Below are positions 6,274 through 63,668 of a DNA stretch of 64,000 nucleotides, in pieces. The DNA comes from a phage. The stretch lies in NCBI GenBank assembly GCA_014435945.1, contig GCA_014435945.1_4088.1; one strand, given 5' to 3'. The position numbers and the translations under genes are program-made. Under the pieces are notes generated by a model, which searched no databases, was not told the origin of the DNA, and saw only the letters and a program-made list of their open reading frames with translations. Each line of letters opens with the position of its first letter. Positions within the stretch are counted from its first letter, which is position 1.

Positions 6274-6465
6274 ATGTTGATTTATCAATGTGATAACATT
6301 CGTGTTATGCAGCATCCCTACTTACAAATCTTTGATGTGCAGCAGTATATGGAAGGTGATGACCCAAGAACCTATGGTCGTAAGTATGATTACTTCACTG
6401 TAAAGCAGTGTCGTAACATCAAAGAAGTACGACAATTAGTTCAAGAACTTCAAAATAAAGGTTGA
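6274..6465 (+). CDS. hypothetical protein (internal ATG with GAGG SD)
   Basis: Avoids 26-nt overlap of track start 6244. Confidence 0.4.
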   Translation: MLIYQCDNIRVMQHPYLQIFDVQQYMEGDDPRTYGRKYDYFTVKQCRNIKEVRQLVQELQNKG

Positions 6466-6500
6466 CTTCGGTCAGCCTTTTTTGTTATAATTATTTCATC
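6458..6500 (+). promoter_or_regulatory. PeSL-like cassette: terminator hairpin (UUCG loop) with embedded TTGACT -35, T-run, TATAAT -10
   Basis: ggttgacttcggtcagccttttttgttataat; resembles RB49-type promoter-early stem-loops. Confidence 0.7.
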
Positions 6501-6520
6501 AAATACTGGGGATTTTAATT

Positions 6521-6961
6521 ATGTACGTATATCGTTTTGAACTTAAATTCAGTTATATTGAACCTAACTTAGATCCAGCAAAAACAGTAGGTCCGTTCGC
6601 ACGGTACTCTTCACGATACAGTACTAAAAATGGATTTGACCGTTTGTGCATGACCACGCCTTCGCAATTCCAACCAGAACCAACTGAAGATGGAATCTAT
6701 TCAATCAAACGTGGCTGGGCATTTGGCTGTCAGAGTTTGAATGATTTGTTTAAGTTCTTTACTATGGACTTGGGTAAATTACATCGTGCAGGGTTTGCTG
6801 TATCAGTATATGAAGTTCCTGATAATCATGTTGACATTGGTCGTAGTCAGGTTCAGTACTATTGTGGTAGTGCCAATCTGGTTCGTATCATGTCAGTGAG
6901 AGAAGCAAAGGATGAGTACCGCCAAAGTAAAAGAGTAATACATGAGGCTGTATATGGATAA
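6521..6961 (+). CDS. hypothetical protein
   Basis: ORF track; downstream of PeSL-like promoter. Confidence 0.5.
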   Translation: MYVYRFELKFSYIEPNLDPAKTVGPFARYSSRYSTKNGFDRLCMTTPSQFQPEPTEDGIYSIKRGWAFGCQSLNDLFKFFTMDLGKLHRAGFAVSVYEVPDNHVDIGRSQVQYYCGSANLVRIMSVREAKDEYRQSKRVIHEAVYG

Positions 6962-7298
6962 GACTCAAATAGAATTAAAAAAATTTGTATCGTTTTATCT
7001 ACCCAATGACCCACGTTGTACACAATATGATGTTGCATATTACAATGCATTGACTACACAGTTAATGAAGAAATTCAAACAGTGTTTGACTGTATTCAAT
7101 GATGATGGTAGACGTAGATATAGAATCATTCCAATGAATGATGAAAACGATAACTACTTTGACTTTGATGTTGTTTTTCGAGCATACAATGATGATAGAA
7201 TAAAATTAAATTATGAGCAAATAATGCTTGACCTGAGTGTTATCTGTGTTATAATTACTCACATAGCCGAACTTGATGGTTTAAAAGAATGGTATTAA
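6954..7298 (+). CDS. hypothetical protein
   Basis: Internal ATG with GAGG SD. Confidence 0.45.
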   Translation: MDKTQIELKKFVSFYLPNDPRCTQYDVAYYNALTTQLMKKFKQCLTVFNDDGRRRYRIIPMNDENDNYFDFDVVFRAYNDDRIKLNYEQIMLDLSVICVIITHIAELDGLKEWY

Positions 7299-7312
7299 CT
7301 TAGAGGATAATC

Positions 7313-7579
7313 ATGAAGCTTAAATTACAATACAATGGTTTTACTTTGCGTAACGACACTGAGTTTGTCAATCGTTCACCAGGTGCTGAGTTGTTTTTGC
7401 GAGAGATGAACATTCCTTTTGTCATCACTACTGTTGGTGACCGTGAAGTGCTACAATACGCAGAGCATCCTGAGATTGATGTTCCGTGGTATTCTGAGCA
7501 TATGTACATGGATATGGCCCGTCGCTACGACTGTAAGTTCGTAGTTGAAGGTGATAAAATTACAGTCCAATTCAAATAA
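7313..7579 (+). CDS. hypothetical protein
   Basis: ORF track; SD GAGGA. Confidence 0.5.
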   Translation: MKLKLQYNGFTLRNDTEFVNRSPGAELFLREMNIPFVITTVGDREVLQYAEHPEIDVPWYSEHMYMDMARRYDCKFVVEGDKITVQFK

Positions 7580-7590
7580 GGTAACTTAAA

Positions 7591-7884
7591 ATGATCAGTA
7601 CTTCAGTAAATGCAAGCATCGTGGCAGACGTAGAAATGGTTAAAGAATGTACAGACGAAACCCTTCGCAACATGTACATCAATGATTTGATTTCAGAGTA
7701 CGGAAGTCGTGGTGTTCATGAGTTTGTTCGCCTAAGCGGTGAATTGATGAAGAATCGCATTCGTATGAAGCTTAATGTGCATCCAAAAGCATGGGCGTTT
7801 ACAATGAAGTACGCTGAAGATATTGTTGAGTTGCGTCGCAATGATGTGTATAATCGTTTACACAATGGTACATTAAAGGACTAA
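7591..7884 (+). CDS. hypothetical protein
   Basis: ORF track. Confidence 0.5.
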   Translation: MISTSVNASIVADVEMVKECTDETLRNMYINDLISEYGSRGVHEFVRLSGELMKNRIRMKLNVHPKAWAFTMKYAEDIVELRRNDVYNRLHNGTLKD

Positions 7885-7890
7885 ATTATA

Positions 7891-7921
7891 GGAATCCGTA
7901 AAAGGATTCCTGTTCTTGTTT
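7891..7921 (+). terminator. intrinsic terminator (GGAATCC-N6-GGATTCC plus T-rich tail)
   Basis: Inverted repeat and T-run seen directly. Confidence 0.55.
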
Positions 7922-7934
7922 ATAAGGTAATAAA

Positions 7935-8159
7935 ATGAAATATCTAGTACTAGTACTGCTATTCTTGAGTACTGTTGTATGTGCTAAACCAAAGTATCAT
8001 GTAGTGTGTATCAACGAGATGGAAGGATATACTGAAACATATAAGAACCATATTGTTGAAGTTGCAGCCCAAGGTTCCTATGGGACCATCATCTTCCTTA
8101 AGAACAATGTGATTGTTCAGTACAAAAAAGATTCAAATTGTAAAGTGACTAAAAATTGA
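7935..8159 (+). CDS. small secreted protein (signal peptide)
   Basis: N-terminus MKYLVLVLLFLSTVVCA. Confidence 0.5.
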   Translation: MKYLVLVLLFLSTVVCAKPKYHVVCINEMEGYTETYKNHIVEVAAQGSYGTIIFLKNNVIVQYKKDSNCKVTKN

Positions 8160-8229
8160 TCTAGATCAATTTTTCAGATATTCTCTGTAAATAATAGCAG
8201 TACAGAACATTATTTTACGGAGGTGTAAT

Positions 8230-10045: not shown

Positions 10046-10051
10046 TTAAAA

Positions 10052-10085
10052 GGGGTTGACTTCAGTCAGCCCTTTGTCGTATAAT
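10052..10085 (+). promoter_or_regulatory. PeSL-like terminator-promoter cassette
   Basis: ggggttgacttcagtcagccctttgtcgtataat. Confidence 0.65.
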
Positions 10086-10132: not shown

Positions 10133-10246
10133 ATGCAAGGTACTAAATTCATCATCGCTGCCCTAATCGCTGCTGTTGTAGTGGGTACAGTATGTTATTC
10201 AATTGACACCTATATCAATACACCTAGTGTTGAACAAACCAAATAA
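10133..10246 (+). CDS. putative 37-aa membrane peptide
   Basis: Read manually; SD GAGG; hydrophobic. Confidence 0.3.
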   Translation: MQGTKFIIAALIAAVVVGTVCYSIDTYINTPSVEQTK

Positions 10247-10254
10247 GGGATATC

Positions 10255-10518
10255 ATGGCTGAAACATTATCACTATATGCGTTAGTACTGTTATTTGTCG
10301 GATTTCTTCCTGCACTCATTACAGCCATTCGTGTTGTTAAACATGAAGCTGCATTGATTGTATGTAGTATTGGGTCGAACATTCTATTGTATTTCTTTTT
10401 GACAAATACTATTGTACTGTTTGCTTTCTTTATCATGATTCTGTGGGTACTTGTAATTCTCGGATTCTTCATTTGGTCATTGGTTGATCCTAAGAAAAAA
10501 ACAGGAGAAGTGAAATGA
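10255..10518 (+). CDS. small membrane protein
   Basis: Hydrophobic composition. Confidence 0.45.
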   Translation: MAETLSLYALVLLFVGFLPALITAIRVVKHEAALIVCSIGSNILLYFFLTNTIVLFAFFIMILWVLVILGFFIWSLVDPKKKTGEVK

Positions 10519-10811
10519 AATTAATTATAGCAATGATGATGTGTTTGGCTTTCCCTGTACTGGCTACTCCTAATCTGGACTGCACACTGTTGCGTTCAGA
10601 TGGTGACACACTTGAAATCAACACATATGAACTCTTTGGTCCAAGTGTAGTGGAGAATGAAACCACCTACAATTTCAAAGCTATTGACTTTGAAGGTAAT
10701 GTTCCAGTACTAACTACAATGACTATTGACAAAACTACTTTACTCGGACGAATCACCACACAACGCGGAGAAAGTAAAACATTCACAGCGAAAGCTGACT
10801 GTAACTACTAA
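10515..10811 (+). CDS. small secreted protein (signal peptide)
   Basis: N-terminus MKLIIAMMMCLAFPVLA. Confidence 0.5.
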   Translation: MKLIIAMMMCLAFPVLATPNLDCTLLRSDGDTLEINTYELFGPSVVENETTYNFKAIDFEGNVPVLTTMTIDKTTLLGRITTQRGESKTFTAKADCNY

Positions 10812-10830
10812 TGGTATAGTACAGTGAAAA

Positions 10831-10866
10831 TAGGGTTGACTTCGGTCAACCTTTTCTTTATACTAT
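10831..10866 (+). promoter_or_regulatory. PeSL-like terminator-promoter cassette
   Basis: gggttgacttcggtcaaccttttctttatact. Confidence 0.6.
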
Positions 10867-12404: not shown

Positions 12405-12410
12405 ACATTT

Positions 12411-12447
12411 AAAAGGTTGACTTCGGTCAACCTTTTTTTGTAAATAT
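12411..12447 (+). promoter_or_regulatory. PeSL-like terminator-promoter cassette (weaker -10)
   Basis: aggttgacttcggtcaacctttttttgtaaat. Confidence 0.5.
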
Positions 12448-13055: not shown

Positions 13056-13060
13056 AAGAA

Positions 13061-13096
13061 AAGGGTTGACTTCGGTCGGCCCTTTTTGCTATAATC
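13061..13096 (+). promoter_or_regulatory. PeSL-like terminator-promoter cassette
   Basis: gggttgacttcggtcggccctttttgctataat. Confidence 0.7.
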
Positions 13097-17265: not shown

Positions 17266-17356
17266 ATGGATTAAACAATGAAGAAGTGTATCATTCTTTG
17301 TTCTAATCACCATCGCATGGTACATTCTGGTAGACTATGTTTGATTGAAAGAAAAA

Positions 17357-17393
17357 AAGGGTTGACTTCAGTCGGCCCTTTTTGCTATAATCA
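17357..17393 (+). promoter_or_regulatory. PeSL-like terminator-promoter cassette
   Basis: gggttgacttcagtcggccctttttgctataat. Confidence 0.7.
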
Positions 17394-17419: not shown

Positions 17420-17935
17420 ATGACACGCATTAACTTAGTACACGTTAAAGAACTTGCTGACCAACATCTGATGGCTGAATATCGTGAACTCCCACGTGTG
17501 TTTGGTGCTGTACAAAAACATGTTCAAGCACGTAAGCGAGTCCGTGATTTCAAAATTAACAGTACTTACCTGTTAGGTTCAGGTCATGTAACATTCTTCT
17601 ACAACAAGTTATTGTACTTACAGAAGCGTCATATTGATATTGTTAACGAATGTTTGCGTCGTGGTATGAAGATTCAAAACACTGAAGTAAACGACATTAG
17701 CGGATTCCCTGCTGAGTTTTGTAATGACTACGTACCATCGGAGTCAGAGATTAAAATGTCTCGTGAGCGTTTGATTGAGAAGCTACAGATGAAGCCTACG
17801 TGGTATAAATTTACTGACGTTGAACGCCCACAGTATGTTAAAGATATGCAGGACGTAAGTAGTAATATAGAATCTAGTACTGATATGTTCGACGAAATTG
17901 AAGAACAAATCAAAGATGAAATGAATAATTATTAA
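17420..17935 (+). CDS. denV: endonuclease V / pyrimidine-dimer DNA glycosylase (DenV family), with about 35-aa acidic C-terminal extension
   Basis: Near-identical to T4 DenV over the N-terminal 60 aa ([42 protein letters not shown]), with weaker similarity through ..PTWYK; catalytic Thr2 and Glu23 conserved. Confidence 0.9.
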
Positions 17936-17940
17936 AGGAA

Positions 17941-17976
17941 AGGGTTGACTTCGGTCAGCCCTTTTTGCTATAATTA
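17941..17976 (+). promoter_or_regulatory. PeSL-like terminator-promoter cassette
   Basis: agggttgacttcggtcagccctttttgctataat. Confidence 0.7.
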
Positions 17977-19378: not shown

Positions 19379-19387
19379 CAATACAAA

Positions 19388-19423
19388 AGGGTTGACTTCG
19401 GTCAGCCCTTTTTGCTATAATTA
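19388..19423 (+). promoter_or_regulatory. PeSL-like terminator-promoter cassette
   Basis: gggttgacttcggtcagccctttttgctataat. Confidence 0.7.
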
Positions 19424-51368: not shown

Positions 51369-51375
51369 GTTTTTA

Positions 51376-51440: not shown

Positions 51441-51461
51441 CTATATAAGAGGATTAAAAAA

Positions 51462-52369: not shown

Positions 52370-52639
52370 GCAGTTTACAAATCTTTACAATTGCCAGTAT
52401 TGACTTATTTTGTCAGTACTGGCATAATGTATTCATTGGCAGATAAGCCGTAGCCCATAGGGTGCGGAAGTGTATCTATAGAAAAAGTAGTTTAGTACAG
52501 TTACAATTGTGCACCCGGTGGGTTAGCTGTTGTCATGGGGTATATTATACCAGTACTGGATAGTGCTGTCAATACTTTTTTTACTATTCAGTACTGAAAA
52601 ACTATTTGATAAAAAGTACTTGCAAACTATGTTTAAAGG

Positions 52640-52735
52640 CGTATAATGTTTTACATCAGGACGGGGAACGAAATAAGTAACTTCCCGTTAAGTAGCCCAG
52701 GAGTAAGGCACACGAAAAACTCCCCTGATAAAATA
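52640..52735 (+). ncRNA. candidate structured RNA element between tandem promoters (copy 1)
   Basis: About 90-nt segment nearly identical to 63797-63885; compensatory change in ACGGGG/CCCCGT stem. Confidence 0.35.
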
Positions 52736-52797
52736 GTTTGACAATTGTTTTTAAAAGCGTATAATACTTACATAAACTACTGAATGAGGGTTACAAA

Positions 52798-53409: not shown

Positions 53410-53502
53410 TTTAAAAAGTACTTGCAAACTAAGTTTAAAGGCGTATAATACTTTATATCGAGGCGGGGAGTGGTTCCCCGCTCATACTAAAAGGGTAACA
53501 AA

Positions 53503-53769
53503 ATGAAAACTTTAAATATCACAACTGCACATCAATTGGTTCGGGATGCGATGGATCATGTGCAAGATTTCTTCCCTGATGTAAGTGTAGTGACTTATGA
53601 AAAAGGTACTTGGACTTATTCAACAATTAACGGTTATGAGCCTGATTTTGATGATCTGGAAGAAATGGAATTTAATTTTGATCTGCTGAATGATGCCGCC
53701 CGTGAAGTGGGAAACGATGTTCAATACATTGATGGAGTAGTCGCACCTGATGCCGTAAAAGGATTATAA
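53503..53769 (+). CDS. hypothetical acidic protein
   Basis: ORF track; promoter unit upstream. Confidence 0.5.
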   Translation: MKTLNITTAHQLVRDAMDHVQDFFPDVSVVTYEKGTWTYSTINGYEPDFDDLEEMEFNFDLLNDAAREVGNDVQYIDGVVAPDAVKGL

Positions 53770-53853
53770 AAGTACTTGCAAACTAAGTTTAAAGGCGTAT
53801 AATACTTTATATCGAGGCGGGGAGTGGTTCCCCGCTCAAACGAGGATTAAAAA

Positions 53854-54093
53854 ATGGCTAGTACTAAAACTTACAACGGGCACAAAAACAAAACTCATTG
53901 GAATGTTTCCTTATGGATTAATAACGGTGAGTCATTGTATCGGCTTGCTCAAAGTTGCATCGCACAAAGTAGAACTAAAGATATTGCTGCGGAATGTATG
54001 TACCGCAGATTAAAAGCCAACGGTACTACTACAACGCCGGACGGATTCAAGTATAGCACTACGGCGATCCGTGCTGCAATGGTTGGAATGTAA
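53854..54093 (+). CDS. hypothetical protein; paralog of 51462..51701
   Basis: Shared motifs; identical promoter unit. Confidence 0.55.
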   Translation: MASTKTYNGHKNKTHWNVSLWINNGESLYRLAQSCIAQSRTKDIAAECMYRRLKANGTTTTPDGFKYSTTAIRAAMVGM

Positions 54094-54151
54094 TATTCAG
54101 TACTGTAACAATGGCGGGGAATGGTTCCCGCCTTTATTGAGGGTTTATCTA

Positions 54152-54412
54152 ATGAGTAAAGTAATTAACTATACAGTACTAAGCAAGTCATTATCTATTA
54201 GCCAGTGCACCGATGGTTATTGGTTTTATGATGAAACGCGTGGAATGAATTTAGCTATGCGTGCAAAAACTGCTGAGGCGGCGTATCTTGAGGCACTGGA
54301 ATACTACCAGGAACGTTTAACGGAAGTAGAAGAAGATTATAAAAGCCTCAAAGCGAAAGTAGATCATTTCGTCGGTCAATTCATCGAGGAAGACGCCGAC
54401 AAACAATATTGA
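54152..54412 (+). CDS. hypothetical protein
   Basis: Internal ATG with GAGGG SD. Confidence 0.45.
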   Translation: MSKVINYTVLSKSLSISQCTDGYWFYDETRGMNLAMRAKTAEAAYLEALEYYQERLTEVEEDYKSLKAKVDHFVGQFIEEDADKQY

Positions 54413-54498
54413 AAAAGTACTTGCAATTAGTTTTCAGTACTGTATAATGGTTTACATCAAAGGGAGAAATGGTTCTCCCTGGTAATGAGGAAAATAAA

Positions 54499-54720
54499 AT
54501 GGCTAATATCACTACTCTTTCCCAACTGGAAGCACTGGTTAAATCTATGCGGGAACATGCCGACAAAATCGGCGTACAAGATCCAGCCGTTTGCTTCTGC
54601 GACGAATTGAATGATGATACCCTGGTAATAGCAGAAGTCCAGGACGTTTCTAACTATTCCTCGCGTTACACTGGCGGCGTAGCAAATAAAGGTGACTTCT
54701 GTTTATACCTTACAAAATAA
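54499..54720 (+). CDS. hypothetical protein
   Basis: ATG after SD GAGGA. Confidence 0.5.
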   Translation: MANITTLSQLEALVKSMREHADKIGVQDPAVCFCDELNDDTLVIAEVQDVSNYSSRYTGGVANKGDFCLYLTK

Positions 54721-54963
54721 CAACGCGGGGAGATAATAACTCCCCGTTACTTTTTCAGTACTGAATCATTTAATAGACGGATCTCGGCACCCGGTGGGTT
54801 AGTGACTGTTTCGTCTTGATGTAGTAATTATGCCAGTACTGGATGCACTTGTCAACAATTATTTTCCAAATACTTTTTATTAAAATACTTGCTATTAGTT
54901 TTTAAACGCGTATAATGTTTTGCATAGGGGGAGCGGTTCCCCTGGTAACTAAGGAATAAGAAA

Positions 54964-55200
54964 ATGGTCGAACAAATCAAATCAACGTCTTCGAATGTAA
55001 CGGGAACGGTAGCACACTTTACTAGTGATGAATCGCGGGGCGTTCCCTATTGTGCTGTACATGTAAACACTGAGGGTAACTACTGGTTTACGGTTTACGG
55101 ATCATATTCATTTGGACGGCCAGGGCATCAAAAAATTCTGGATAAAGTACAACCAACGGGTAAAAATATCACTGCCGAAATGTTTTATAAAAAATCATAA
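54964..55200 (+). CDS. hypothetical protein
   Basis: ORF track. Confidence 0.5.
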   Translation: MVEQIKSTSSNVTGTVAHFTSDESRGVPYCAVHVNTEGNYWFTVYGSYSFGRPGHQKILDKVQPTGKNITAEMFYKKS

Positions 55201-55284
55201 AGTACTTGCAATTAGTTTTTAGTACTGTATAATATTTTACATCGCAAGGGGAAACGGTTTCCCCTGGTAACTAAGGATAATCAA

Positions 55285-55584
55285 ATGAAAGTAGCAATCA
55301 TCGCCCTGGCTTTATCTGTTTCCTCTTTCGCTGTTAATGCGTCGTTAGATGTACCTGGTGATAAATTCATTCAGTGCACCGTAGCAATGACAGATGAAAG
55401 TACTGGCGAGATTGTATTAAAGGATTTAGAGATCCAGCCGGAAGCATTTAAAAACGGCCCGTTCCATGAAGAAGACGAAAACGGTAGCACAACAATTTAT
55501 TATGATGCCAGTACTAAACGTGGTTCTGTCACTGTAATGGATACGGAGAAAGTAACTCACACCGGAGTAATTAACTGTTTATAA
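55285..55584 (+). CDS. secreted protein (signal peptide)
   Basis: N-terminus MKVAIIALALSVSSFAVNA. Confidence 0.55.
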   Translation: MKVAIIALALSVSSFAVNASLDVPGDKFIQCTVAMTDESTGEIVLKDLEIQPEAFKNGPFHEEDENGSTTIYYDASTKRGSVTVMDTEKVTHTGVINCL

Positions 55585-55666
55585 TAGTTTGACTATGTAT
55601 TACAGTACTGTATAATAGATACATAAGGGGCGAATAGTTTGCCCCTGGCATAAAGGGGAAAACATT

Positions 55667-55897
55667 ATGACAGCACGAATTGTTTTACTTAACGCTGGAA
55701 GTACTACACAACTCCTTAACGCCGTGCATTATGATATTGAAACGAGCGTTAATCTTATCAGTACTGTAGTACTATTGGACACTGGAAAGGTCGCCAATGA
55801 TAAAGCGATTGCAGGTATACTAACTGATCTCAAGCCTGGTAGCAGTACGCCAATAACGTTAAATGGCAAAGTGTTTAATATTTTACTTACTGATTAA
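55667..55897 (+). CDS. hypothetical protein
   Basis: ORF track. Confidence 0.45.
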   Translation: MTARIVLLNAGSTTQLLNAVHYDIETSVNLISTVVLLDTGKVANDKAIAGILTDLKPGSSTPITLNGKVFNILLTD

Positions 55898-55903
55898 GTA
55901 CAT

Positions 55904-55926
55904 AGCCCACCTGGTGGGCTTTTTTG
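55904..55926 (+). terminator. intrinsic terminator AGCCCAC-ctg-GTGGGCT plus T5
   Basis: Inverted repeat and T-run. Confidence 0.65.
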
Positions 55927-55994
55927 TTTTTGTAGTATCGTAGTACTGAGATACTTTAAAAATAGTTTTAAAAAAGTAGTTGACATTACCACAA

Positions 55995-56085
55995 AAAGGC
56001 GTAGAATGTATTACATCAAGACGGGGAGCACTAAGTAGACCGCCAGTAAGTCGAACGAAAAACTGGACACGTCGAGAAAACTTTG
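55995..56085 (+). ncRNA. candidate structured RNA element, divergent copy
   Basis: Shares acgggga...aagtag.cc..cagtaag..acgaaaaact with 52640 and 63797. Confidence 0.25.
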
Positions 56086-56130
56086 ATACACTAATAAACG
56101 TAAACTAAACTTTAATTGAGGATTTATAAA

Positions 56131-56613
56131 ATGGCTAATGTAAAATCATTCATCAAAGCACTGGTAGCAAATGAAACTAACGTCGCGGCAGAGATCCTGG
56201 CTGAACTGGATAACGATACCATGAAAGCGGTACGCAATAATTTTAACATCGCGTACAGTACTGCGAAAGAACTACAAGCAAATAAAGCGGCAGAAATTGA
56301 AGCGGCAAAGGCGGCCCGTGAAGCAGAACTACAAGCAACAATCGAAAGTATTCAGGCGGCAGTAGTTGGATTGGATCTGGAAGTAGTTACAGAGATGGCA
56401 CAAAAAGCCCTGGCGGTTAAGTATGGGGAAGACAAGCCAGAAGTAAAAGCCAAAAAATGGATTCAGGAACGCGTAGCGGTAGTACTGGACAACGGGGAAG
56501 AATATCTGATTCCGGTGCGTGGTAACTGCATTGCGGTAGTACTGGATGCGATTAACTCCAGTGGTATGACTCGCGAGGAATGGATCGAAGCTCATCGCAA
56601 AGTTGAAGCATAA
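56131..56613 (+). CDS. hypothetical Ala/Glu-rich protein
   Basis: ATG after SD GAGGA; track start 56116 is TTG. Confidence 0.5.
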   Translation: MANVKSFIKALVANETNVAAEILAELDNDTMKAVRNNFNIAYSTAKELQANKAAEIEAAKAAREAELQATIESIQAAVVGLDLEVVTEMAQKALAVKYGEDKPEVKAKKWIQERVAVVLDNGEEYLIPVRGNCIAVVLDAINSSGMTREEWIEAHRKVEA

Positions 56614-56634
56614 CAATTAAAGTACTGAATCACT

Positions 56635-56662
56635 AGCCCACCTTAAACGGTGGGCTTTTTTG
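56635..56662 (+). terminator. intrinsic terminator AGCCCACC..GGTGGGCT plus T6
   Basis: Inverted repeat and T-run. Confidence 0.65.
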
Positions 56663-56898
56663 TGTTTATCGTTTACCAGCTCCACATCACCGCCTAGAAA
56701 CGATTCTAACGCATTAAACTGATTATCTGATGCATTGCCCTAGCTGGTGGCGTTAAGGTCGTTGTAATGCGATTGAGAGCGTTTAAAGTATTTTGCAAAA
56801 AGTAATAAAAAGTACTTGCACGATTAAGAGATTAGCGTATAATGTTTTACATCGAGAGGGGGAAACGGTTCTCCTTCCAAATCAAAGGAATAAAAACA

Positions 56899-57126
56899 AT
56901 GGCTATTATCATTACTCGCGTATCTGGTACTACTGGCAACGAACAAGTAGTTGCAGTCATTACCAACAAGGAAGGTGCGGAATTGCAAAATGCAATGAAT
57001 ACCTGGGCCGTTAATGAGTTCGGTCAGTGGGCAAGTGTAGCATACATTGAAACCTATCAAGTGCCGTCGATTAGTTTAACTGATTTGGGCGTTGAGCGTA
57101 TCCTTTGCCTGGATGAATTAAATTAA
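56899..57126 (+). CDS. hypothetical protein
   Basis: ATG after SD AAGGAA. Confidence 0.5.
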   Translation: MAIIITRVSGTTGNEQVVAVITNKEGAELQNAMNTWAVNEFGQWASVAYIETYQVPSISLTDLGVERILCLDELN

Positions 57127-57212
57127 AAAAAGTACTTGCAAAGTAAATCGAATAAAGTATAATACATTACATCAAGGGGAGAAATGGTTCTCCCCACTAC
57201 AAGGAAACTAAA

Positions 57213-57356
57213 ATGAAAACTTGTCAATGTGGTCAGAAATCTATTACGGGTTTAAAGCGGGGCGTTGCTCTTTGCCAGTACCATTATAATTTACAAGTAT
57301 GGGGTAAAGAATGGGCCGACCAGGTGGAAGCAGCAAAGAAAGCAAAAAGTAAGTAA
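57213..57356 (+). CDS. putative 47-aa Cys-containing basic protein (MKTCQCGQKS...KAKSK)
   Basis: Read manually; promoter, hairpin and SD upstream. Confidence 0.4.
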   Translation: MKTCQCGQKSITGLKRGVALCQYHYNLQVWGKEWADQVEAAKKAKSK

Positions 57357-57435
57357 AAATATTATCACAGTACTATTGACATAGTTTGATAGTACTGGCA
57401 TAATAGATTTTATCAAGACAACTGAGGAAAATAAA

Positions 57436-57648
57436 ATGGCTATCATCACTAAAATCAAAGTTAACAAATCACTGGTTAAGCTGGAAGAAGTGAAAGAAGG
57501 TTATAAAGTATCTTGGTGCGGCATGTATCGGATATTCACTGATATTGATGACGCAATCAATTATTACAGCGACACGGTTAAAAACTTTGTTCGTGCTGAT
57601 GTGGTTATGGCAGTGGCAACGCACAAAGCAGCGAAAGAAAGTAAGTAA
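57436..57648 (+). CDS. hypothetical protein
   Basis: ORF track; same 3' end and downstream promoter as 57213..57356. Confidence 0.5.
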   Translation: MAIITKIKVNKSLVKLEEVKEGYKVSWCGMYRIFTDIDDAINYYSDTVKNFVRADVVMAVATHKAAKESK

Positions 57649-57737
57649 AAATATTATCACAGTACTATTGACATAGTTTGATAGTACTGGCATAATAGAT
57701 TTTATCAAGACAACATATTAATTTAAGGAATACAAAA

Positions 57738-58061
57738 ATGGCTAAAACTATCATTAACACCGTTTCCCTGGCTGCAATCCGTGCAATCAATGTTGACGGT
57801 AAACGTTGGACTGATTCATATGGCAATACTTATCATTCTTGTCATGTAAGCGTTGAACTGGATAACGGTTTGAATGATCTGGCGGTTGAATCATTTACTT
57901 ATGGCTATGAAGATGCATATCAACAAACGGCGTTATCTCTCTTAAAGGAATCAGTAGACGGGCTTAATACTGATGAAACCTCCCTTACTCGTGTGTGCAA
58001 TGATCTTAATATCCCGTTGCATTGTACTGTACAGAATGTTAAACGCAAAAAAGATCTTTAA
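57738..58061 (+). CDS. hypothetical protein
   Basis: ORF track. Confidence 0.5.
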   Translation: MAKTIINTVSLAAIRAINVDGKRWTDSYGNTYHSCHVSVELDNGLNDLAVESFTYGYEDAYQQTALSLLKESVDGLNTDETSLTRVCNDLNIPLHCTVQNVKRKKDL

Positions 58062-58141
58062 TTAGCTTTACTTTATGCAGATACTTTGATATAGTGTCTG
58101 CATAGGGGAAAGAAATTAAATTAACTTAAGAGGATCGTATA

Positions 58142-58411
58142 ATGAAAAATATCAGTACTTTAATCGATGCAGGTACTCATGTTCGTCGGTCTATGGTTGC
58201 AACCAGTACTACAAAACAAGTAGCGAGCGGTTATCTTGTATTTGTGCACGATGGTAAACTCCTGGAACGTTCAATCAATTTTGATGTTAAAAACAATTGC
58301 CGTTTTATTATCTTTAAGCGTGAGCAATATAAAATTGATTTACCAGCAAAGCCCATTAGTGGGGCGTACAACGTGCAATCATTGTTTGAACGTCAACCAT
58401 ACACCTATTAA
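58142..58411 (+). CDS. hypothetical protein
   Basis: ORF track; SD GAGGA. Confidence 0.5.
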   Translation: MKNISTLIDAGTHVRRSMVATSTTKQVASGYLVFVHDGKLLERSINFDVKNNCRFIIFKREQYKIDLPAKPISGAYNVQSLFERQPYTY

Positions 58412-58462
58412 TCAAAACATCGTTAGCGGTCGATTCAGGCCGCTTATATTGGGGATTATACC

Positions 58463-58735
58463 ATGAACGTTAATCAAGTACTGAATGAGATCGAAAGCAT
58501 CATTAAACCGATGAAGCGTACTGATGCTATGTTAACACCGGAAGAATGCCGCCTTTATGAGCGTTACAGCGTCGAACAAGTCCAGGCAATGGCTATGGCT
58601 ACCCCAGCCGTTAAACCGCCTGAGAATGCGTTACAGGACGTTACAGGGGATTATATCATCAATCCAGTACTAGGGAAGATGGCTGCAATCACCGAAGATC
58701 AACAAGACTACTTAAGCCAGTACTTAAAAGGTTAA
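58463..58735 (+). CDS. hypothetical protein
   Basis: ORF track. Confidence 0.5.
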   Translation: MNVNQVLNEIESIIKPMKRTDAMLTPEECRLYERYSVEQVQAMAMATPAVKPPENALQDVTGDYIINPVLGKMAAITEDQQDYLSQYLKG

Positions 58736-58740
58736 TTAAT

Positions 58741-58950
58741 ATGCTTACTGTACAGGATAAGATCGACATCTTAAAGGTTAATATGTATGTGATTGATGCC
58801 GTACCTGGTAAAGTATTTGCATACGATGACACTACTGTAAGCGATTTCTACTATAGCCAGGCCGTGGGGGATCTTTCTGTACAGTCGGTTATTGAAAACG
58901 TAGTTAATGCAGCGTATGAGCATTTACTTTCAAATAGTACTTGCAATTAG
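58741..58950 (+). CDS. hypothetical protein
   Basis: ORF track. Confidence 0.45.
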   Translation: MLTVQDKIDILKVNMYVIDAVPGKVFAYDDTTVSDFYYSQAVGDLSVQSVIENVVNAAYEHLLSNSTCN

Positions 58951-59019
58951 TTTTTAAACGCGTATAATGTTTTACATGAAGGGGAGAAATGATTCTCCCC
59001 ACTAATTAAGGAATATGAA

Positions 59020-59166
59020 ATGAAAGCATCAAAAAAGAGTACTAACAAGAAAGCACGTTCAACCTTAGATGGGGTATTCCCTTTACGTTTTGTTGATGAA
59101 GTAGTTTCCTACCCGCCGGGCCTTACTCCTGAGATGGTAGAAAGTTTGCGTAAATCTAAAAAATAG
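59020..59166 (+). CDS. putative 48-aa basic protein (MKASKKSTNKKARS...)
   Basis: Read manually; promoter, hairpin and SD AAGGAA upstream. Confidence 0.4.
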   Translation: MKASKKSTNKKARSTLDGVFPLRFVDEVVSYPPGLTPEMVESLRKSKK

Positions 59167-59248
59167 TACTTGCAATTAGTTTTTAGTACTGTATAATAGT
59201 TTACATGAAGGGGAAAACGTTCCCCTTACACCTAACGAGGAAAGTATA

Positions 59249-59500
59249 ATGGAAACAATTTTAATCAAAGACACTGCTACTACTGTAACTTATGATAATG
59301 ATTGCATTATCCCAGGGACTGAGTACGGCGAACGTGTACCCGTTCAAGTAGAGATTGATACCACATACATCGACAAGGCTGACCAGTGTATCACTATTGT
59401 AATTGGTGAATATCGTTTTCTACCAGAAGAGATCCAAAAATGGCAGAATATGATTGACCGTGCGAAATTAGTCGCACAAAGTTTAAAATACAAAGTTTAA
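59249..59500 (+). CDS. hypothetical protein
   Basis: ORF track. Confidence 0.5.
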   Translation: METILIKDTATTVTYDNDCIIPGTEYGERVPVQVEIDTTYIDKADQCITIVIGEYRFLPEEIQKWQNMIDRAKLVAQSLKYKV

Positions 59501-59586
59501 AATAATACTTGCAATTAGTTTTTAAACGCGTATAATGTTTTACATGAAGGGGAGAAATGATTCTCCCCAATAACAGGAGAAACAAA

Positions 59587-59739
59587 ATGAAACAATACAA
59601 CGCTCGGTTTGATGTTACTATCGGTAACGGCAAAGGTCAATTCTCTTTCAGTACTCGCAAAAGTTATACAGAAAACTTCCTGCGTAATTGTGCACTGACC
59701 GCCGCACAAATTAAACATTACTTTCAGGCTAAAAAATGA
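59587..59739 (+). CDS. putative 50-aa protein
   Basis: ATG after SD AGGAGA. Confidence 0.4.
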   Translation: MKQYNARFDVTIGNGKGQFSFSTRKSYTENFLRNCALTAAQIKHYFQAKK

Positions 59740-59825
59740 AATCATTAGCTTATTACAGTTCGGCCCTGGTCGGTGCATTGATCGCGGCATTGTTAGTAAC
59801 CTATCTATTCTTTATGGTGATTTAA
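59736..59825 (+). CDS. putative 29-aa single-TM peptide (MKSLAYYSSALVGALIAALLVTYLFFMVI)
   Basis: Read manually; ATGA overlap with upstream stop. Confidence 0.3.
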   Translation: MKSLAYYSSALVGALIAALLVTYLFFMVI

Positions 59826-59969
59826 ATGAATCCAACAGGCTTAAATTATAAAAGTTGTTCGGCGTTTACGAAAGCAAATAAAGCGAATGCACGTAAAGCG
59901 AAAGTACAGGAATACATCAAGCAAGGCATGACGCGAAAGGCGGCGATTCTAAAAGCTAAAAATAAATGA
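59826..59969 (+). CDS. putative 47-aa basic protein
   Basis: Read manually; directly follows previous stop. Confidence 0.35.
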   Translation: MNPTGLNYKSCSAFTKANKANARKAKVQEYIKQGMTRKAAILKAKNK

Positions 59970-59974
59970 AAAAA

Positions 59975-60010
59975 GTGGTTGACTCCGGTCAGCCATTTTG
60001 CTATTATATA
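59975..60010 (+). promoter_or_regulatory. PeSL-like terminator-promoter cassette
   Basis: gtggttgactccggtcagccattttgctattat. Confidence 0.6.
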
Positions 60011-60179
60011 TTCATTGAGAGATAGCTCACTAGCCCACAGGGTGCATAAGTGTATCTATTATATAAGTATTGAGTACTGAAAACTATTTTTAAAAAGTAC
60101 TTGCAAACTATCTCAATAAGCGTATAATGTTTTACATCGCAAGGGGAAATGGTTTCCCCTGGTAATAAGGAAACGAATC

Positions 60180-60521
60180 ATGACTATCTCAATTGCTCAA
60201 TCTAACTTTGAAAATGAAATCATCGCCCAGGCACTGCGTTTAAATGATGGTCGGGCCGAAATTAATTACGGTTTCAATTCAGGCGGTTGTGAAAAATATC
60301 AGTACTTTGTAACGGCTGATGGCGGTGTCCTGGGGATCAATACAGTTATTGTAAACATTCAGAAAATTAATTTCAATGATCCAGAAGATAGCCAGTTTTA
60401 CATCACGGGCGTGAACGTGAACTATGAGGATGATTATCTAACTGATGATCACACTGGCGAGAAGTTAGAAAGTGCATACGGTGAAGATGATTATCAGTCC
60501 GGTCCAGAAGATTTCGAATAA
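60180..60521 (+). CDS. hypothetical acidic protein
   Basis: ORF track. Confidence 0.5.
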   Translation: MTISIAQSNFENEIIAQALRLNDGRAEINYGFNSGGCEKYQYFVTADGGVLGINTVIVNIQKINFNDPEDSQFYITGVNVNYEDDYLTDDHTGEKLESAYGEDDYQSGPEDFE

Positions 60522-60616
60522 TATAAAAAATAGTTTGACAATAGATTATAGTACTGTATAATAGTTTACATCAAGGGGAGAGATGATTCTCCCCACTAAC
60601 AGAGAGAGAAAACAAA

Positions 60617-60799
60617 ATGGCTGAATTAATCGCTCGGAATACAATTGAAGGCATTGAAGATGTAACGTTGTCCTATGATTCAGATAAAAAAGTTTATGTT
60701 GTTCGTTATGGTTTGATTGGTGTTAACGTTGATTATATTGATGAAGCCTTTGAAAAATACTTTGAATTTATTAATATGGCTTATAATGATTATCGTTAA
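60617..60799 (+). CDS. hypothetical protein
   Basis: ORF track. Confidence 0.5.
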   Translation: MAELIARNTIEGIEDVTLSYDSDKKVYVVRYGLIGVNVDYIDEAFEKYFEFINMAYNDYR

Positions 60800-60889
60800 A
60801 AAATAGTTTGACAATAGTTTTAAGTACTGTATAATAGTTTTCATCAAGGGGAGAAAAACTTCTCCCCACTAACAGAGAGAGAAAGCAAA

Positions 60890-61102
60890 ATGGCTAATAT
60901 CTGCACTGTACTGAAAAATGCAAAACAAGTTTTATTTTCTGATCACGATCATTTAAACAAGGATATTACGGGCGTTCGGAATATCAAAGATGTAAAAAGT
61001 GTTATGGGTATCTATTGCAATATGAAACGTGTTGGTACGTTCGGCGACAAAGTACTATACCAGGCAGGGGATTATAACTTTACATTAACCATTATCAATT
61101 AA
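60890..61102 (+). CDS. hypothetical protein
   Basis: ORF track. Confidence 0.5.
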   Translation: MANICTVLKNAKQVLFSDHDHLNKDITGVRNIKDVKSVMGIYCNMKRVGTFGDKVLYQAGDYNFTLTIIN

Positions 61103-61192
61103 AATATATTACCAGTACTATTGACAACGTTTGATAGTACTGTATAATAAGTTTTATAAACAGTAGTTAACTTAACCTAAGAGAGAAACAAA

Positions 61193-61336
61193 ATGATCGC
61201 ACTGGATTCATTCATCGACGCAGTACTGGCAAAAACTGGCGAGGATCTGACCGCAGAACAATACGCGATGATCGAGCAATGTCAGCAAAACGGTAAATCG
61301 GTGAAAGATACTGTTAAGATTATCCGCAAGATGTAA
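61193..61336 (+). CDS. putative 47-aa protein (MIALDSFIDAVLAK...)
   Basis: Read manually; promoter at 61120-61150; SD GAGAGA; terminator follows. Confidence 0.4.
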   Translation: MIALDSFIDAVLAKTGEDLTAEQYAMIEQCQQNGKSVKDTVKIIRKM

Positions 61337-61342
61337 GATTAT

Positions 61343-61370
61343 AGCCCACTGGTTAACGCTGGTGGGCTTT
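61343..61370 (+). terminator. probable terminator hairpin AGCCCAC..GTGGGCT with short T tail
   Basis: Inverted repeat. Confidence 0.45.
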
Positions 61371-61441
61371 AATCATTTACCCTATACAATGCCAGTACTA
61401 AACCGTTTATCTCGTTAGAATGCGTTACAGGACGTTTAACA

Positions 61442-61639
61442 ATGATTAGCATGAAATCAGTACAAAAACAAATAGAAACATTATCAAAAATTAAACGTAA
61501 ACAATACTCCTTAGAATATACAATCAATGGTAACTATCATCTAATGAAAGAAAATAATTTTATAGTCATTGATGAATCATTGCAAATTATTAGTATAGTA
61601 CTGAAAGCATTAATCAATGACAGAAAAAAATTAAAATAA
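61442..61639 (+). CDS. hypothetical protein
   Basis: ORF track. Confidence 0.4.
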   Translation: MISMKSVQKQIETLSKIKRKQYSLEYTINGNYHLMKENNFIVIDESLQIISIVLKALINDRKKLK

Positions 61640-61968
61640 TCTATTGACAATATCCTCCAGTACTGGCATAATACTTACATCAAGACGAGAACGTCACTAA
61701 CCCATAGGGTGCACAAATGTAACTATATAATATCGATCAATAAATGATCAAAAAAGTACTGGATCAATTTAGCATAAGGAGTATAATTCTGATCAATTCT
61801 TGATCAAAGGCAATAAACGCAGTTGAATTTATATAGACAATACAAAGGCGTTACTATCCGTGGTAATGCTGGTGGATATGTAGTATCATATGGTTTGAAT
61901 AAGATAAACACTAGTAGTATTATTGTAGCATTACAGTACTATAGTATTTTTATAATGAGGTTAAAATA

Positions 61969-62226
61969 ATGGCTGTAGGATTTGCGAAGGACGGGGCCGA
62001 ACAAGACGAGATTAACGCAGTGATTCAGGCCGCTGTAAACCACGCTAGAAAGCAAATTAACGCACAAAGAGAATCACTGGTACATTGCCTCGACTGCGGC
62101 GATAAAATTCCTGAGAATCGACGCCAGGCCGTTATAGGGTGCATGTATTGTATTACTTGCCAGGAGGATCATGATAGTACTTTTAAAAGAGATCCGCGTA
62201 ATTGTTGGCATAGATCTATGAGATAA
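61969..62226 (+). CDS. TraR/DksA-family C4 zinc-finger protein
   Basis: CLDCGDKIPENRRQAVIGCMYCITCQ matches the CxxC-N17-CxxC DksA/TraR signature. Confidence 0.7.
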   Translation: MAVGFAKDGAEQDEINAVIQAAVNHARKQINAQRESLVHCLDCGDKIPENRRQAVIGCMYCITCQEDHDSTFKRDPRNCWHRSMR

Positions 62227-62290
62227 AAAGTAATTGACAGTACTGAAAGATAGTGTATAATGTTTTATATCTTAACTGAGGATAGAAATC

Positions 62291-62647
62291 ATGGGAATAC
62301 AACATATCACGCGTACTACTGACAATGGCGAGATCACTGGTTATCAAGTACAGGGCAAAGTAGCACAATTGCAGTACTGGTTTGTTAAACGTGGAATCAT
62401 TGCACCGGATCTTGATTATGACCGTGTAGCGTTTATTGATTCTCTTTATGTTGATCCTGATAGTCGGGGCAATGGTGAAGGTAACGAATTAATGAATGCC
62501 TTTATCGATGCCGCCGATGATTCAGATTGTATCATCTTAGAATGCGATACGGGAGAAGATAACGCCTTTAATCTTAAAGAATGGTACGAAGGTTTCGGAT
62601 TCGAGGTATTGATAGATAGTGAATATCCTATCATGATTTTATCATAG
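62291..62647 (+). CDS. possible small GNAT-like acetyltransferase
   Basis: Weak motif-A-like segment VDPDSRGNGEGNELMNAF. Confidence 0.35.
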   Translation: MGIQHITRTTDNGEITGYQVQGKVAQLQYWFVKRGIIAPDLDYDRVAFIDSLYVDPDSRGNGEGNELMNAFIDAADDSDCIILECDTGEDNAFNLKEWYEGFGFEVLIDSEYPIMILS

Positions 62648-62725
62648 TACTTGCATTTAGTTTTCAGTACTGTTATAGTACTTGCATCAAGGGGAAACAT
62701 CTTCCCCTACTAAGAGGAAATAAAA

Positions 62726-62914
62726 ATGGAAAACTTATCAAGTATTTTAGTACAAGATGATTTCGGTAATCCTGGAAGTGCTATCATTGTTCGGGGTAAT
62801 AAAGCAACGTTTGTTATTGCTGGTGGACCCGTACAGCGTAGCATTAAAAATAATGCTGTTACCATTAATAATGTACGCTATCGCTTAGATAAAGAATTAA
62901 TTCATAAACTGTAA
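62726..62914 (+). CDS. hypothetical protein
   Basis: ORF track. Confidence 0.5.
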   Translation: MENLSSILVQDDFGNPGSAIIVRGNKATFVIAGGPVQRSIKNNAVTINNVRYRLDKELIHKL

Positions 62915-62999
62915 AAAAGTACTGGACAATAGATTATAGTACTGTATAATAAGTTACATGAAGGGGAGAAATGATTCTCCCCACTAAGAGGAAAGAAAA

Positions 63000-63212
63000 A
63001 TGCAAGGTCAACTAATCGTTCGTAAATGGTCTGATACTAACGCTAAACCGTGGGATGTACAATACATCGCCCCCAATGGTGAATCACGTTATCAGCCAGG
63101 TGTAACGCATAGTACTGAGCAATTCGCCGCCGCTCACCGTGAACGCCTGTTACAATCAATGCAGCAAGGTTTCGGTGAAAAATTCATTCAGGATCATTGG
63201 CTGAAAGATTAA
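63000..63212 (+). CDS. hypothetical protein
   Basis: ORF track. Confidence 0.5.
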   Translation: MQGQLIVRKWSDTNAKPWDVQYIAPNGESRYQPGVTHSTEQFAAAHRERLLQSMQQGFGEKFIQDHWLKD

Positions 63213-63298
63213 AAAGTACTTGCACTGTACTGAATAAAGTGTATAATGTTTTATATCGGAAGGGGAATAGTTCCCCTCCGAACAAAGAGGAAAGTATA

Positions 63299-63472
63299 AT
63301 GGTCCAGGTAGAATTAACAGTACTGAAAGATCTGTTTTATCGGATTGGTACTACTGGCGAATATCCGAAGGGTGATAATGCAAAACTTTACGTATCACTC
63401 GACTTATGGCAACGCGAACAATTAGCAACGGCCTGGCGTAAAGGCAAAGCAGATAGCGAGGTGAAAGCATGA
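63299..63472 (+). CDS. hypothetical 57-aa protein
   Basis: ATG after SD AGAGGAAAG. Confidence 0.45.
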   Translation: MVQVELTVLKDLFYRIGTTGEYPKGDNAKLYVSLDLWQREQLATAWRKGKADSEVKA

Positions 63473-63618
63473 AAGAATTCTTATTTGAAGTAGTGTTTCA
63501 AGGTGTCGGTAGTAACCAACTGATTCGCTCAAGTGGTTATAATGTTAACCAGGCATGGAATAACATTAAACAAATGTACCCGAACGCTATCACATATCGC
63601 AACCCGAAAGAAGTTTAA
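63469..63618 (+). CDS. putative 49-aa protein
   Basis: Read manually; ATGA overlap with upstream stop. Confidence 0.35.
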   Translation: MKEFLFEVVFQGVGSNQLIRSSGYNVNQAWNNIKQMYPNAITYRNPKEV

Positions 63619-63634
63619 AAATAATTGAAAAAGG

Positions 63635-63668
63635 GATTGACTCCGGTCAGTCCCTTTGCTATTATATA
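63635..63668 (+). promoter_or_regulatory. PeSL-like terminator-promoter cassette
   Basis: gggattgactccggtcagtccctttgctattat. Confidence 0.6.

Follow-up and report, generated by a model that had tools for sequence, protein, structure and literature searches.

Repeated terminator-promoter cassettes as probable stop-and-restart transcription signals in the early regions of an Asteriusvirus jumbo phage

Introduction

A 64,000-nucleotide stretch of phage DNA (contig GCA_014435945.1_4088.1 of NCBI GenBank assembly GCA_014435945.1; hereafter the window) carries ten copies of a repeat of about 50 bases between its genes, which raises the question of what this repeat does and what it says about the phage that bears it. 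An earlier note had likened the repeat to the promoter-early stem-loop (PeSL) cassettes of RB49-type phages, had taken it as support for assigning the phage to that type, and had regarded the flanked open reading frames (ORFs) as shuffled early modules. The ten repeats, here called class A cassettes, are quite likely composite signals that stop and restart transcription in regions of a 121Q-like (Asteriusvirus) jumbo phage that are transcribed early by host RNA polymerase, and they probably also serve as sites of recombination between gene modules.

Copies and genomic setting of the class A cassettes

Both strands of the window were searched with the 20-mer pattern GGGTTGACTTCGGTCAGCCC, allowing at most three mismatches, alongside 100 dinucleotide shuffles. 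The window yielded exactly ten matches, all on the + strand (6459, 10053, 10833, 12414, 13063, 17359, 17942, 19389, 59976 and 63634), and the shuffles yielded none; the ten or so positions listed in the earlier note were thus confirmed with offsets of 1-3 nt. A looser expression, TTGAC-N4-6-GTCRR, gave no additional class A copy on the + strand of the window. The common layout is AAA-GGGTTGAC-UUCG-GUCAGCCC-TTTTTGC-TATAAT, and all ten copies are intergenic. Aligned over about 60 columns, they run from an A-rich stretch through the hairpin, the T-run, TGC-TATAAT and a (C)ATTTCATC(A/G)A box to a Shine-Dalgarno sequence and ATG, the upstream A-tract being conserved among the copies. Upstream stop codons lie 0-15 nt before the cassettes, and a Shine-Dalgarno sequence with a start codon follows about 20-55 nt past the -10 box in eight of the ten.

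GC skew agrees with + strand genes at 1-24 kb and 50-64 kb of the window and a - strand block in between, and the cassettes are confined to the two + strand blocks. Most ORFs beside them have no Pfam match. A tRNA scan of the window found none, and Rfam returned no match either for the whole window at the gathering threshold or for 59.9-64 kb at E<=1, indicating that the cassettes and the non-coding stretches after 59976 and 63634 belong to no described RNA family.

Terminator and promoter signals in the same bases

The core stem of the hairpin comprises 8 bp, including one U.G wobble, and is lengthened to 11-13 bp by adjoining A/U pairs. All ten copies fold as predicted hairpins (-14.1 to -19.5 kcal/mol, z-scores -4.2 to -6.1), with U-runs of 3-8 residues directly 3' of the hairpin and after the upstream stop codon on the coding strand. 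The stem and T-run described in the earlier note therefore occur throughout, but the UUCG loop is found in only six copies, the others having UUCA (two) or UCCG (two). The copies have the anatomy of intrinsic (Rho-independent) terminators, and termination at them is predicted from it.

The same bases hold promoter elements. Nine of the ten copies have a -10 box, with the hexamer TTGACT as the 5' stem arm serving as -35 and the T-run lying within a spacer of 17-18 nt. The arrangement originally proposed, TTGACT-N18-TATAAT, is present in six copies, five of which have TG ahead of the -10 in a consensus scan; three copies (10833, 59976 and 63634) instead have TTGACT-N17 followed by TATACT or TATTAT. 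The remaining copy, 12414 (cassette 12409..12440), has the hairpin and T7 and no acceptable -10 (TTTTTTTGTAAATA), as do its orthologues in relatives, and therefore looks like a terminator only, which is its probable role. Among 64 distinct copies collected with their flanks, 54 have a -10 matching at least 5/6 positions at a spacer of 17-18 nt, including 35 with perfect TATAAT and 45 with TGn. The exceptions are the 12414 orthologues, a copy after a phage sigma-factor gene, a half cassette in phage 121Q and one degraded copy in phage TH47; they resemble the 'degraded' PeSLs described in Comeau et al. 2014 (PMC4122927).

Covariation was scored for a 12-pair helix over 31 distinct core variants, drawn from the window, the loci of eight relatives and the whole TH47 genome. 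Pairing is retained in 94% of cells, double (compensatory) changes occur in 13 cells at three pairs, none of 500 shuffles reaches the observed covariation, and shifting the partner columns destroys pairing. TTGAC in the 5' arm is unchanged in 31/31 variants, its 3' partners alternating between A and G only so that pairing is preserved via wobble, while the outer pairs alternate among G-C, A-U and U-A. An invariant TTGAC with wobble-only partners next to covarying outer pairs fits joint selection of this segment as a -35 box and as an RNA stem.

A mechanism can be proposed on this basis. In the RNA of the upstream gene, the GC-clamped hairpin GGGUUGAC-UUCG-GUCAGCCC, extended by A/U pairs and followed by the U-run, would act as an intrinsic terminator or attenuator and stabilise the 3' end. 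At the DNA level, the same bases would form a sigma70-type promoter, in which the A-tract would be an AT-rich UP-like region, the 5' stem arm the -35 TTGACT, the 3' arm plus T-run the 17-18 bp spacer, and TGn-TATAAT the extended -10. Transcription would start about 7 nt past the -10, in the conserved CATC(A/G)A box, giving a short leader with a Shine-Dalgarno sequence, and each cassette would insulate one to a dozen small early genes as a transcription unit of their own. Promoter activity, termination efficiency, early timing and the sigma factor used are all inferred here.

The host phage and the distribution of cassettes in its relatives

Between 5 and 21 kb, the window shares 98% identity with Escherichia phages WPEC3, CMSTMSU, BF17, fEgEco12 and Turkey3 (360-386 kb) and 88% with 121Q, the Asteriusvirus exemplar. 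Among the megablast matches listed for 5-21 kb and for 48-64 kb, the best are phages of 347-386 kb filed under Asteriusvirus or as unclassified Escherichia phages, and no RB49-like record is among those listed; by their taxonomy lines, 121Q, BF17 and UE-S1 belong to Asteriusvirus and fall outside Straboviridae. Compared with the same phages, the window at 48-64 kb is mosaic, falling into 5-16 pieces with 32-85% coverage among the matches listed. Its counterpart in fEgEco12 lies at 4.1-10.1 kb, within the direct terminal repeat of that phage, which is 20,993 bp long (PMC13070987).

Aligning the copies and scanning related genomes, as the earlier note had proposed, gave a shared consensus and homologous cassettes at orthologous positions in 8/8 related genomes examined. 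The complete genome of TH47 (352,450 bp) has 14 class A copies; all of them share a strand and fall within 88.9-147.3 kb, the part of TH47 that is homologous to the window. With copies limited to 58 of 352 kb, the cassette marks one-sixth of that genome, a part with many small genes whose function is unknown and with the terminal repeat at its end. For the related phage CBB, the presumed early region and the terminal repeat are likewise where RpoD-like promoters cluster, and promoters and terminators are listed separately (PMC5259590).

Association of cassettes with gene gain and loss

To map the ends of insertions and deletions (indels), the window was aligned with seven relatives by BLAST and the alignments were chained. 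Between 0.7 and 22.8 kb, 22 distinct indel ends were found, five of them within class A cassettes, and negative gaps in the chained alignments, where sequence is shared at both ends, coincide with cassettes. Breakpoints fall at 4/7 cassette-bearing and 5/45 other intergenic junctions (Fisher P=0.0125, odds ratio ~10); this junction-level test was adopted in place of a null drawn from non-coding positions, and is slightly conservative since the gene call misplaced the junction at 17359. Relative to a uniform null, breakpoints are enriched in class A cassettes with P=3e-4.

Two sites resolve the exchange at the level of single junctions. Cassettes 10053 and 10833 bracket a module of three small + strand ORFs (10133..10811; ORFs at about 10133-10246, 10255-10518 and 10515-10811), where UE-S1 has a single chimeric cassette with an upstream flank of the 10053 type and a downstream flank of the 10833 type, and 121Q has the first small ORF only. 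At the second site, 121Q carries the half cassette AAAGGAAAGGGTTGACTTCGG, then unrelated sequence (genes 218/219) and then a complete cassette, where the window, within the same outer flanks, has just one complete cassette (17942); the junction sits in the hairpin loop, the half cassette being broken after TTCGG. The slot between cassettes 17942 and 19389 in turn holds differing endonuclease-like genes in the window (DUF4379), 121Q, BF17, Turkey3 and WPEC3. The 45-60 bp common to the copies suggest that cassettes act as homology patches for the deletion, insertion and swapping of modules between related phages, as has been described for PeSLs in T4-like phages. A recombination role is accordingly rated probable, not proven, given the small numbers, the non-independence of the relatives and homing endonucleases as an alternative driver.

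The view that the flanked ORFs, including denV, are shuffled modules holds for the neighbouring slots, which vary, but not for denV itself, which lies between two cassettes yet occupies the same place in 7/7 relatives compared there. A miniature inverted-repeat transposable element (MITE)-like mobile element was considered and ruled out, as the copies are all co-oriented with transcription, occur in early regions only and lie exactly between stop codon and Shine-Dalgarno sequence.

Class B and class C promoter cassettes

Two further families of repeated promoter cassettes, absent from the earlier note, crowd the window at 50-64 kb. Class B (13 copies) reads AAAAGTAC-TTGCAA-N16-TATAAT-GTTTTACATC, with a GGGGA...TCCCC hairpin coming next in the 5' leader, ahead of Shine-Dalgarno and ATG; examples within 50921-63900 are at 51383, 52059, 53422, 53776, 54421, 55206, 57136, 58941, 59170, 59509 and 60101. 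Class C reads TTGACA-N16-TATAAT, often with a hairpin similar to that of class B, and its copies are at 725, 4683, 15516, 49677, 52738, 60535, 60808, 61121, 62234 and 63872. Cassettes of these two classes recur every 200-700 bp in 50921-63900, and 13/18 indel ends relative to E9.1, vB_Ec-M-J and Turkey3 lie inside them, often with sequence shared at both ends. Two class B cassettes of 72 nt, identical in sequence, stand on either side of an 88-amino-acid ORF, at about 53413-53484 and 53767-53838; Turkey3 and vB_Ec-M-J have one class B cassette at that site, without the ORF.

At 746-764, all relatives that cover the site (121Q, UE-S1, BF17 and Turkey3) have a 330-bp insertion relative to the window, with 19 bp shared at the ends, and the insertion site overlaps the class C promoter TTGACA...TATAAT at 725-752. 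BF17 and Turkey3 encode an RNA polymerase sigma factor (pieces 14-982 and 9-974, respectively) about 2.6 kb upstream of the window start, and this gene is directly followed by a class A hairpin lacking a -10. The phage sigma factor could read one of the three promoter classes.

Alternative explanations

The repeats might be intrinsic terminators only, with an AT-rich tail and a TTGAC that occurs in the stem by chance giving them the look of promoters. Hairpin and U-run are complete in 10/10 copies, annotators of UE-S1 labelled these copies 'terminator' (those of Yersinia phage fHe-Yen9-03 chose '-35/-10 signals'), and both 12414 and the copy after the sigma-factor gene retain the hairpin without a -10. 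A pure terminator stem would be free to covary, however, yet TTGAC is the part that stays invariant in 31 copies while the outer pairs change together, and TATAAT-like hexamers stand at a fixed 17-18 nt in 54/64 copies, 45 of these with TGn. Viral contigs of IMG/VR point the same way: among the matches listed, 91/120 distinct cases of the wobble form GGGTTGAC-N4-GTCAGCCC (with GTCAG) have both a T-run and a -10 at the correct spacing, so a role as mere terminators is very unlikely. The same comparison bears on the idea that the repeats are promoters whose palindrome acts as DNA, namely as an operator for a dimeric phage or host regulator, a cruciform or a recombinase target, with no RNA terminator. 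Inverted repeats over a -35 box are typical of operators, Arbiol et al. (PMC2839356) speculated that PeSL stems are targeted by a recombination protein, and one indel junction falls exactly in the loop. The perfect palindrome (GTCAA), however, has the T-run and a correctly spaced -10 in just 13/63 of the matches listed, so that it is the wobble form that goes with these signals; the commonest stem has a U.G wobble (28/31 copies at one pair), which as a T.G mismatch in DNA breaks the palindrome; and the A-run and T-run flanks and the place directly after stop codons suit a terminator. A purely DNA-level role is therefore most improbable. One reason for the wobble may be that G in place of A keeps the RNA stem and turns the other-strand mirror of TTGAC into CTGAC, a change that would weaken an antisense promoter and an antisense hairpin.

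As for recombination, the association with indels could be incidental, arising from homing endonucleases and from illegitimate or short-homology recombination at gene boundaries, where cassettes happen to sit. Several breakpoints do lie within ORFs or at cassette-free junctions. Incidental placement nonetheless accounts poorly for two junctions with chimeric or half cassettes, for negative gaps that coincide with cassettes, for the junction odds ratio and for the like behaviour of class B and C cassettes at 50-64 kb, including the perfect 72-nt direct repeat around an ORF missing in relatives. We regard this explanation as rather unlikely, and favour cassettes that stop and restart transcription and also provide homology for exchange.

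Several observations weigh against this favoured reading. Enrichment of breakpoints in class A cassettes is not significant against the non-coding-position null (P=0.35), so that the expected agreement between cassette edges and synteny breakpoints holds for the five indel ends and the Fisher test but disappears under that null; the junction test itself involves few junctions and non-independent relatives; and homing-endonuclease-like genes in some variable slots (HNH in WPEC3, DUF4379) could cause indels on their own. On the transcriptional side, copies 59976 and 63634 have no directly following ORF; about 100 non-coding nt and additional promoters come next. A general sigma70 consensus scan of 5-24 kb is unenriched (90 found vs 87.6 expected), meaning that the promoter argument stands on this repeat family specifically, and the 18-bp spacer is one base above the optimum. 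Promoter activity is read from consensus matches in a group without transcript data in the searched literature, and since these phages have a sigma70-family factor of their own, with its gene just upstream of the window-homologous region, the responsible holoenzyme is uncertain.

Individual cassettes and neighbouring features

Listed by position, all on the + strand, the first cassette (6454..6491) consists of an A-tract, the hairpin AGGTTGAC-TTCG-GTCAGCCT (-14.1 kcal/mol), T6 and TGn-TATAAT at a spacer of 18, and is followed by an ORF at 6521-6961. The second (10048..10085) has the loop TTCA and TATAAT at a spacer of 18, and forms the left edge of the three-ORF module without counterpart in UE-S1; the third (10828..10864), with the perfect stem GGGTTGAC/GTCAACCT and TATACT at a spacer of 17, precedes a 503-amino-acid ORF annotated in relatives as a virion structural protein. 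In the fifth (13058..13095), the 3' arm GTCGGCCC forms two wobble pairs, and TGn-TATAAT follows at a spacer of 18. The sixth (17354..17391) stands directly 5' of denV, and homology with BF17, CMSTMSU, 121Q and UE-S1 restarts at 17344-17354. The denV-like gene (17420..17935, +) encodes a putative pyrimidine-dimer DNA glycosylase of 171 amino acids (Pfam Pyr_excise PF03013, E=9e-15) and lies between the sixth cassette and the seventh (17937..17974), which has the exact consensus and is the single copy where 121Q has a half and a full cassette. The eighth (19384..19421), also an exact consensus, closes the hypervariable slot (18230-19378) on its right side. The ninth (59971..60007), situated in the hyperplastic region that resembles a terminal repeat, has the hairpin TGGTTGAC-TCCG-GTCAGCCA with a compensatory outer pair and TATTAT at a spacer of 17, and non-coding sequence follows; the tenth (63629..63665), GGATTGAC-TCCG-GTCAGTCC, has a compensatory third pair and TATTAT at a spacer of 17, and is separated from the ORF that comes next by non-coding sequence and two more promoters.

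A 26-nt box, CCCAYAGGGTGCAYAARTGTAWCTAT, occurs in five copies where none is expected (52454-52479, +; 52497-52522, -; 60034-60059, 61701-61726 and 63687-63712, +). The three perfect + strand boxes (60034, 61701 and 63687) begin 22-29 nt past the -10 of an early promoter, two of these promoters being class A copies 59976 and 63634. The box has no ORF directly after it, no Rfam match and no stable fold, and a similar ...CCCAYAGGGTG follows such promoters in other Rak2-like contigs. The idea that the putative transcripts of about 90 nt past 59976, 63634 and the promoter at 61644 are small RNAs is not supported, as they fold no better than shuffles (z = +0.6 to -1.6).

Two arrays of paralogous genes also vary among relatives. 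The tandem array at 20288-21308 (+), with ORFs of about 112-115 amino acids, differs by one unit in 121Q and UE-S1 (alignments overlap at 20288/20416), an indel that is due to recombination between paralogues, away from any cassette. At 22763-43931 (-), seventeen tandem paralogous ORFs of 369-398 amino acids are annotated in relatives as RCC1, 'regulator of chromosome condensation' or HERC1-like. TH47 has no alignment of at least 1.5 kb over 27-47 kb of the window, and the corresponding interval there is only about 7 kb, indicating that the copy number of this RCC1-like array differs strongly among close relatives.

The palindrome AGTACT (extended C-AGTACT-G) is about 12-fold over-represented in the window, with 266 sites vs about 22 expected; the next palindromic hexamer is only 3-fold over-represented. 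Sites are present in all 4-kb bins, and within ORFs they fall in every frame and on either coding strand; TH47 at 150-200 kb has 124 sites vs 13 +/- 4 in shuffles. AGTACT looks like a genome-wide DNA-level signal, and its over-representation is not mentioned in the searched literature.

The same core in other phage families

A 56-nt consensus query matches 164 phage records. Six distant matches were inspected (KVP40, Aeromonas phage 65, Cronobacter CR3, Brochothrix A9, Yersinia fHe-Yen9-03 and Vibrio D480), and in 6/6 the core lies between two co-oriented ORFs and has a T-rich stretch and then a -10-like hexamer downstream. KVP40 carries AAAGGGTTGACTGCGGTCAGCCCTTTCGCGTATTAT between ORFs 37 and 38, with 81% identity over 48 nt to the window consensus, and has at least six GGGTTGAC-N4-GTCARCCC sites. 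The exact 20-mer gave 46 matches in 34 IMG/VR stretches vs 9 in 596 Gb of bacterial genomes. When the inner 14 nt were held fixed, the GGG/CCC clamp gave 43 matches, seven other paired GC clamps 10 together and 56 unpaired combinations 11 together. The unit spans Rak2/121Q-like jumbo phages, KVP40-like and Aeromonas Straboviridae, Vequintavirinae and one Herelleviridae phage whose host is Gram-positive.

Since the core is spread over unrelated phage families, a motif of this kind has no taxonomic value, and the RB49-type assignment drawn from it has to be abandoned, the window being 98% identical to Asteriusvirus phages. Tentatively, the unit of about 45 nt, AAAGGGTTGAC-UUCG-GUCAGCCC-U-run-(TGn)TATAAT, might be a portable regulatory and recombination linker common to unrelated large virulent phages. 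Co-infecting phages could have passed it on horizontally, or very strong convergence could have led to a single optimal design of overlapped terminator and promoter; under convergence, the conserved U.G wobble (GTCAG in place of GTCAA) would guard against both an antisense promoter and an antisense terminator. In Aeromonas phage 65 (202820-203251), the class A core is present in exact form, together with its T-run and a -10-like box, directly 5' of a gene annotated as a 'putative UV damage repair endonuclease'; the parallel with the cassette 5' of denV is probably a coincidence, as that coding sequence is 981 nt long and far apart in size from the 171-amino-acid denV product of the window.

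Significance and comparison with known systems

In Asteriusvirus jumbo phages, with their hundreds of hypothetical genes, the cassettes provide a first map of regulation in the early regions and predict the boundaries of transcription units. They extend the PeSL idea of 'modular shuffling' past T4-like phages with junctions at the sequence level, and the compact, strand-specific terminator/promoter design found across phage families may be relevant to phage genome evolution and to synthetic expression insulators. In the searched literature, no paper linking PeSL with Asteriusvirus, 121Q, RaK2 or GAP32 was found, and most genome papers on the Asteriusvirus group are silent on promoters and terminators. 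The PeSL type of element is thus already known, and its presence in this group is undescribed in that literature.

The closest precedent is the PeSLs of RB49 and phi1, for which Arbiol et al. 2010 (PMC2839356) defined a subclass with the stem-loop overlapping the -35 box; in their reporter assays on RB49, the stem-loops terminate and the promoters are strong, and a mini-circle crossover was placed in the hairpin loop. Like class A, these PeSLs are repeated intergenic elements with a sigma70-like promoter, an AT-rich upstream part and a stable stem-loop, extending from the stop codon upstream as far as the downstream Shine-Dalgarno-ATG; they cluster in hyperplastic, ORFan-rich regions; and they show a two-cassette module in one phage against a single chimeric cassette in another; and in both systems a crossover falls in the loop. 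All features of anatomy and of module-indel association by which PeSLs can be recognised in silico are found in class A. RB49 PeSLs differ in residing in a T4-like phage and in having stems of the form G(n)-loop-C(n), which mostly overlie the -10 or stand in the interval separating it from the -35, in promoters that read TTGACA-N17-TATAAT, whereas in class A, compared by description, one arm of the stem is the -35 itself, a spacer of 18 prevails and the -10 is extended. Class B, with its GGGGA...TCCCC hairpin past the -10, and class C are closer to the G(n)-loop-C(n) PeSLs than class A is. Activity and mini-circles have been demonstrated for RB49 PeSLs, whereas class A is described from sequence. 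The likeness to PeSLs claimed originally thus holds for the architecture and for two clean comparative module cases but not for the phage, which is an Asteriusvirus and lies outside the published range of PeSLs (T4-like phages, Straboviridae), a range that is no mechanistic requirement.

For the PeSLs of Vibrio phages nt-1 and KVP40, Comeau et al. 2014 (PMC4122927) give the stem consensus A3-4 G3-loop-C3 T3-4 and the -35 TTGYVH. This stem consensus accommodates the class A core AAAGGG[TTGAC-N4-GTCAG]CCCTTT. Differences are the -35, which is TTGYVH and not TTGACT, and the phage family, Straboviridae; the KVP40 core sites are candidates for the PeSLs published for that pair.

Ordinary signals of E. 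coli share the separate halves of the cassette, namely Rho-independent terminators with a GC-rich hairpin, UUCG tetraloop and U-run, and extended -10 sigma70 promoters with TTGACT, a 17-18 bp spacer and TGnTATAAT, but in class A the terminator and promoter occupy the same ~40 bp and the unit is repeated. Lambdoid morons are autonomous modules with their own promoter and terminator, inserted between genes of temperate phages and expressed from the prophage. They resemble the modules described here as self-contained promoter/terminator gene units, and differ in that their signals stand at opposite ends, with no shared repeated linker of the kind that joins promoter and terminator in the class A cassettes.

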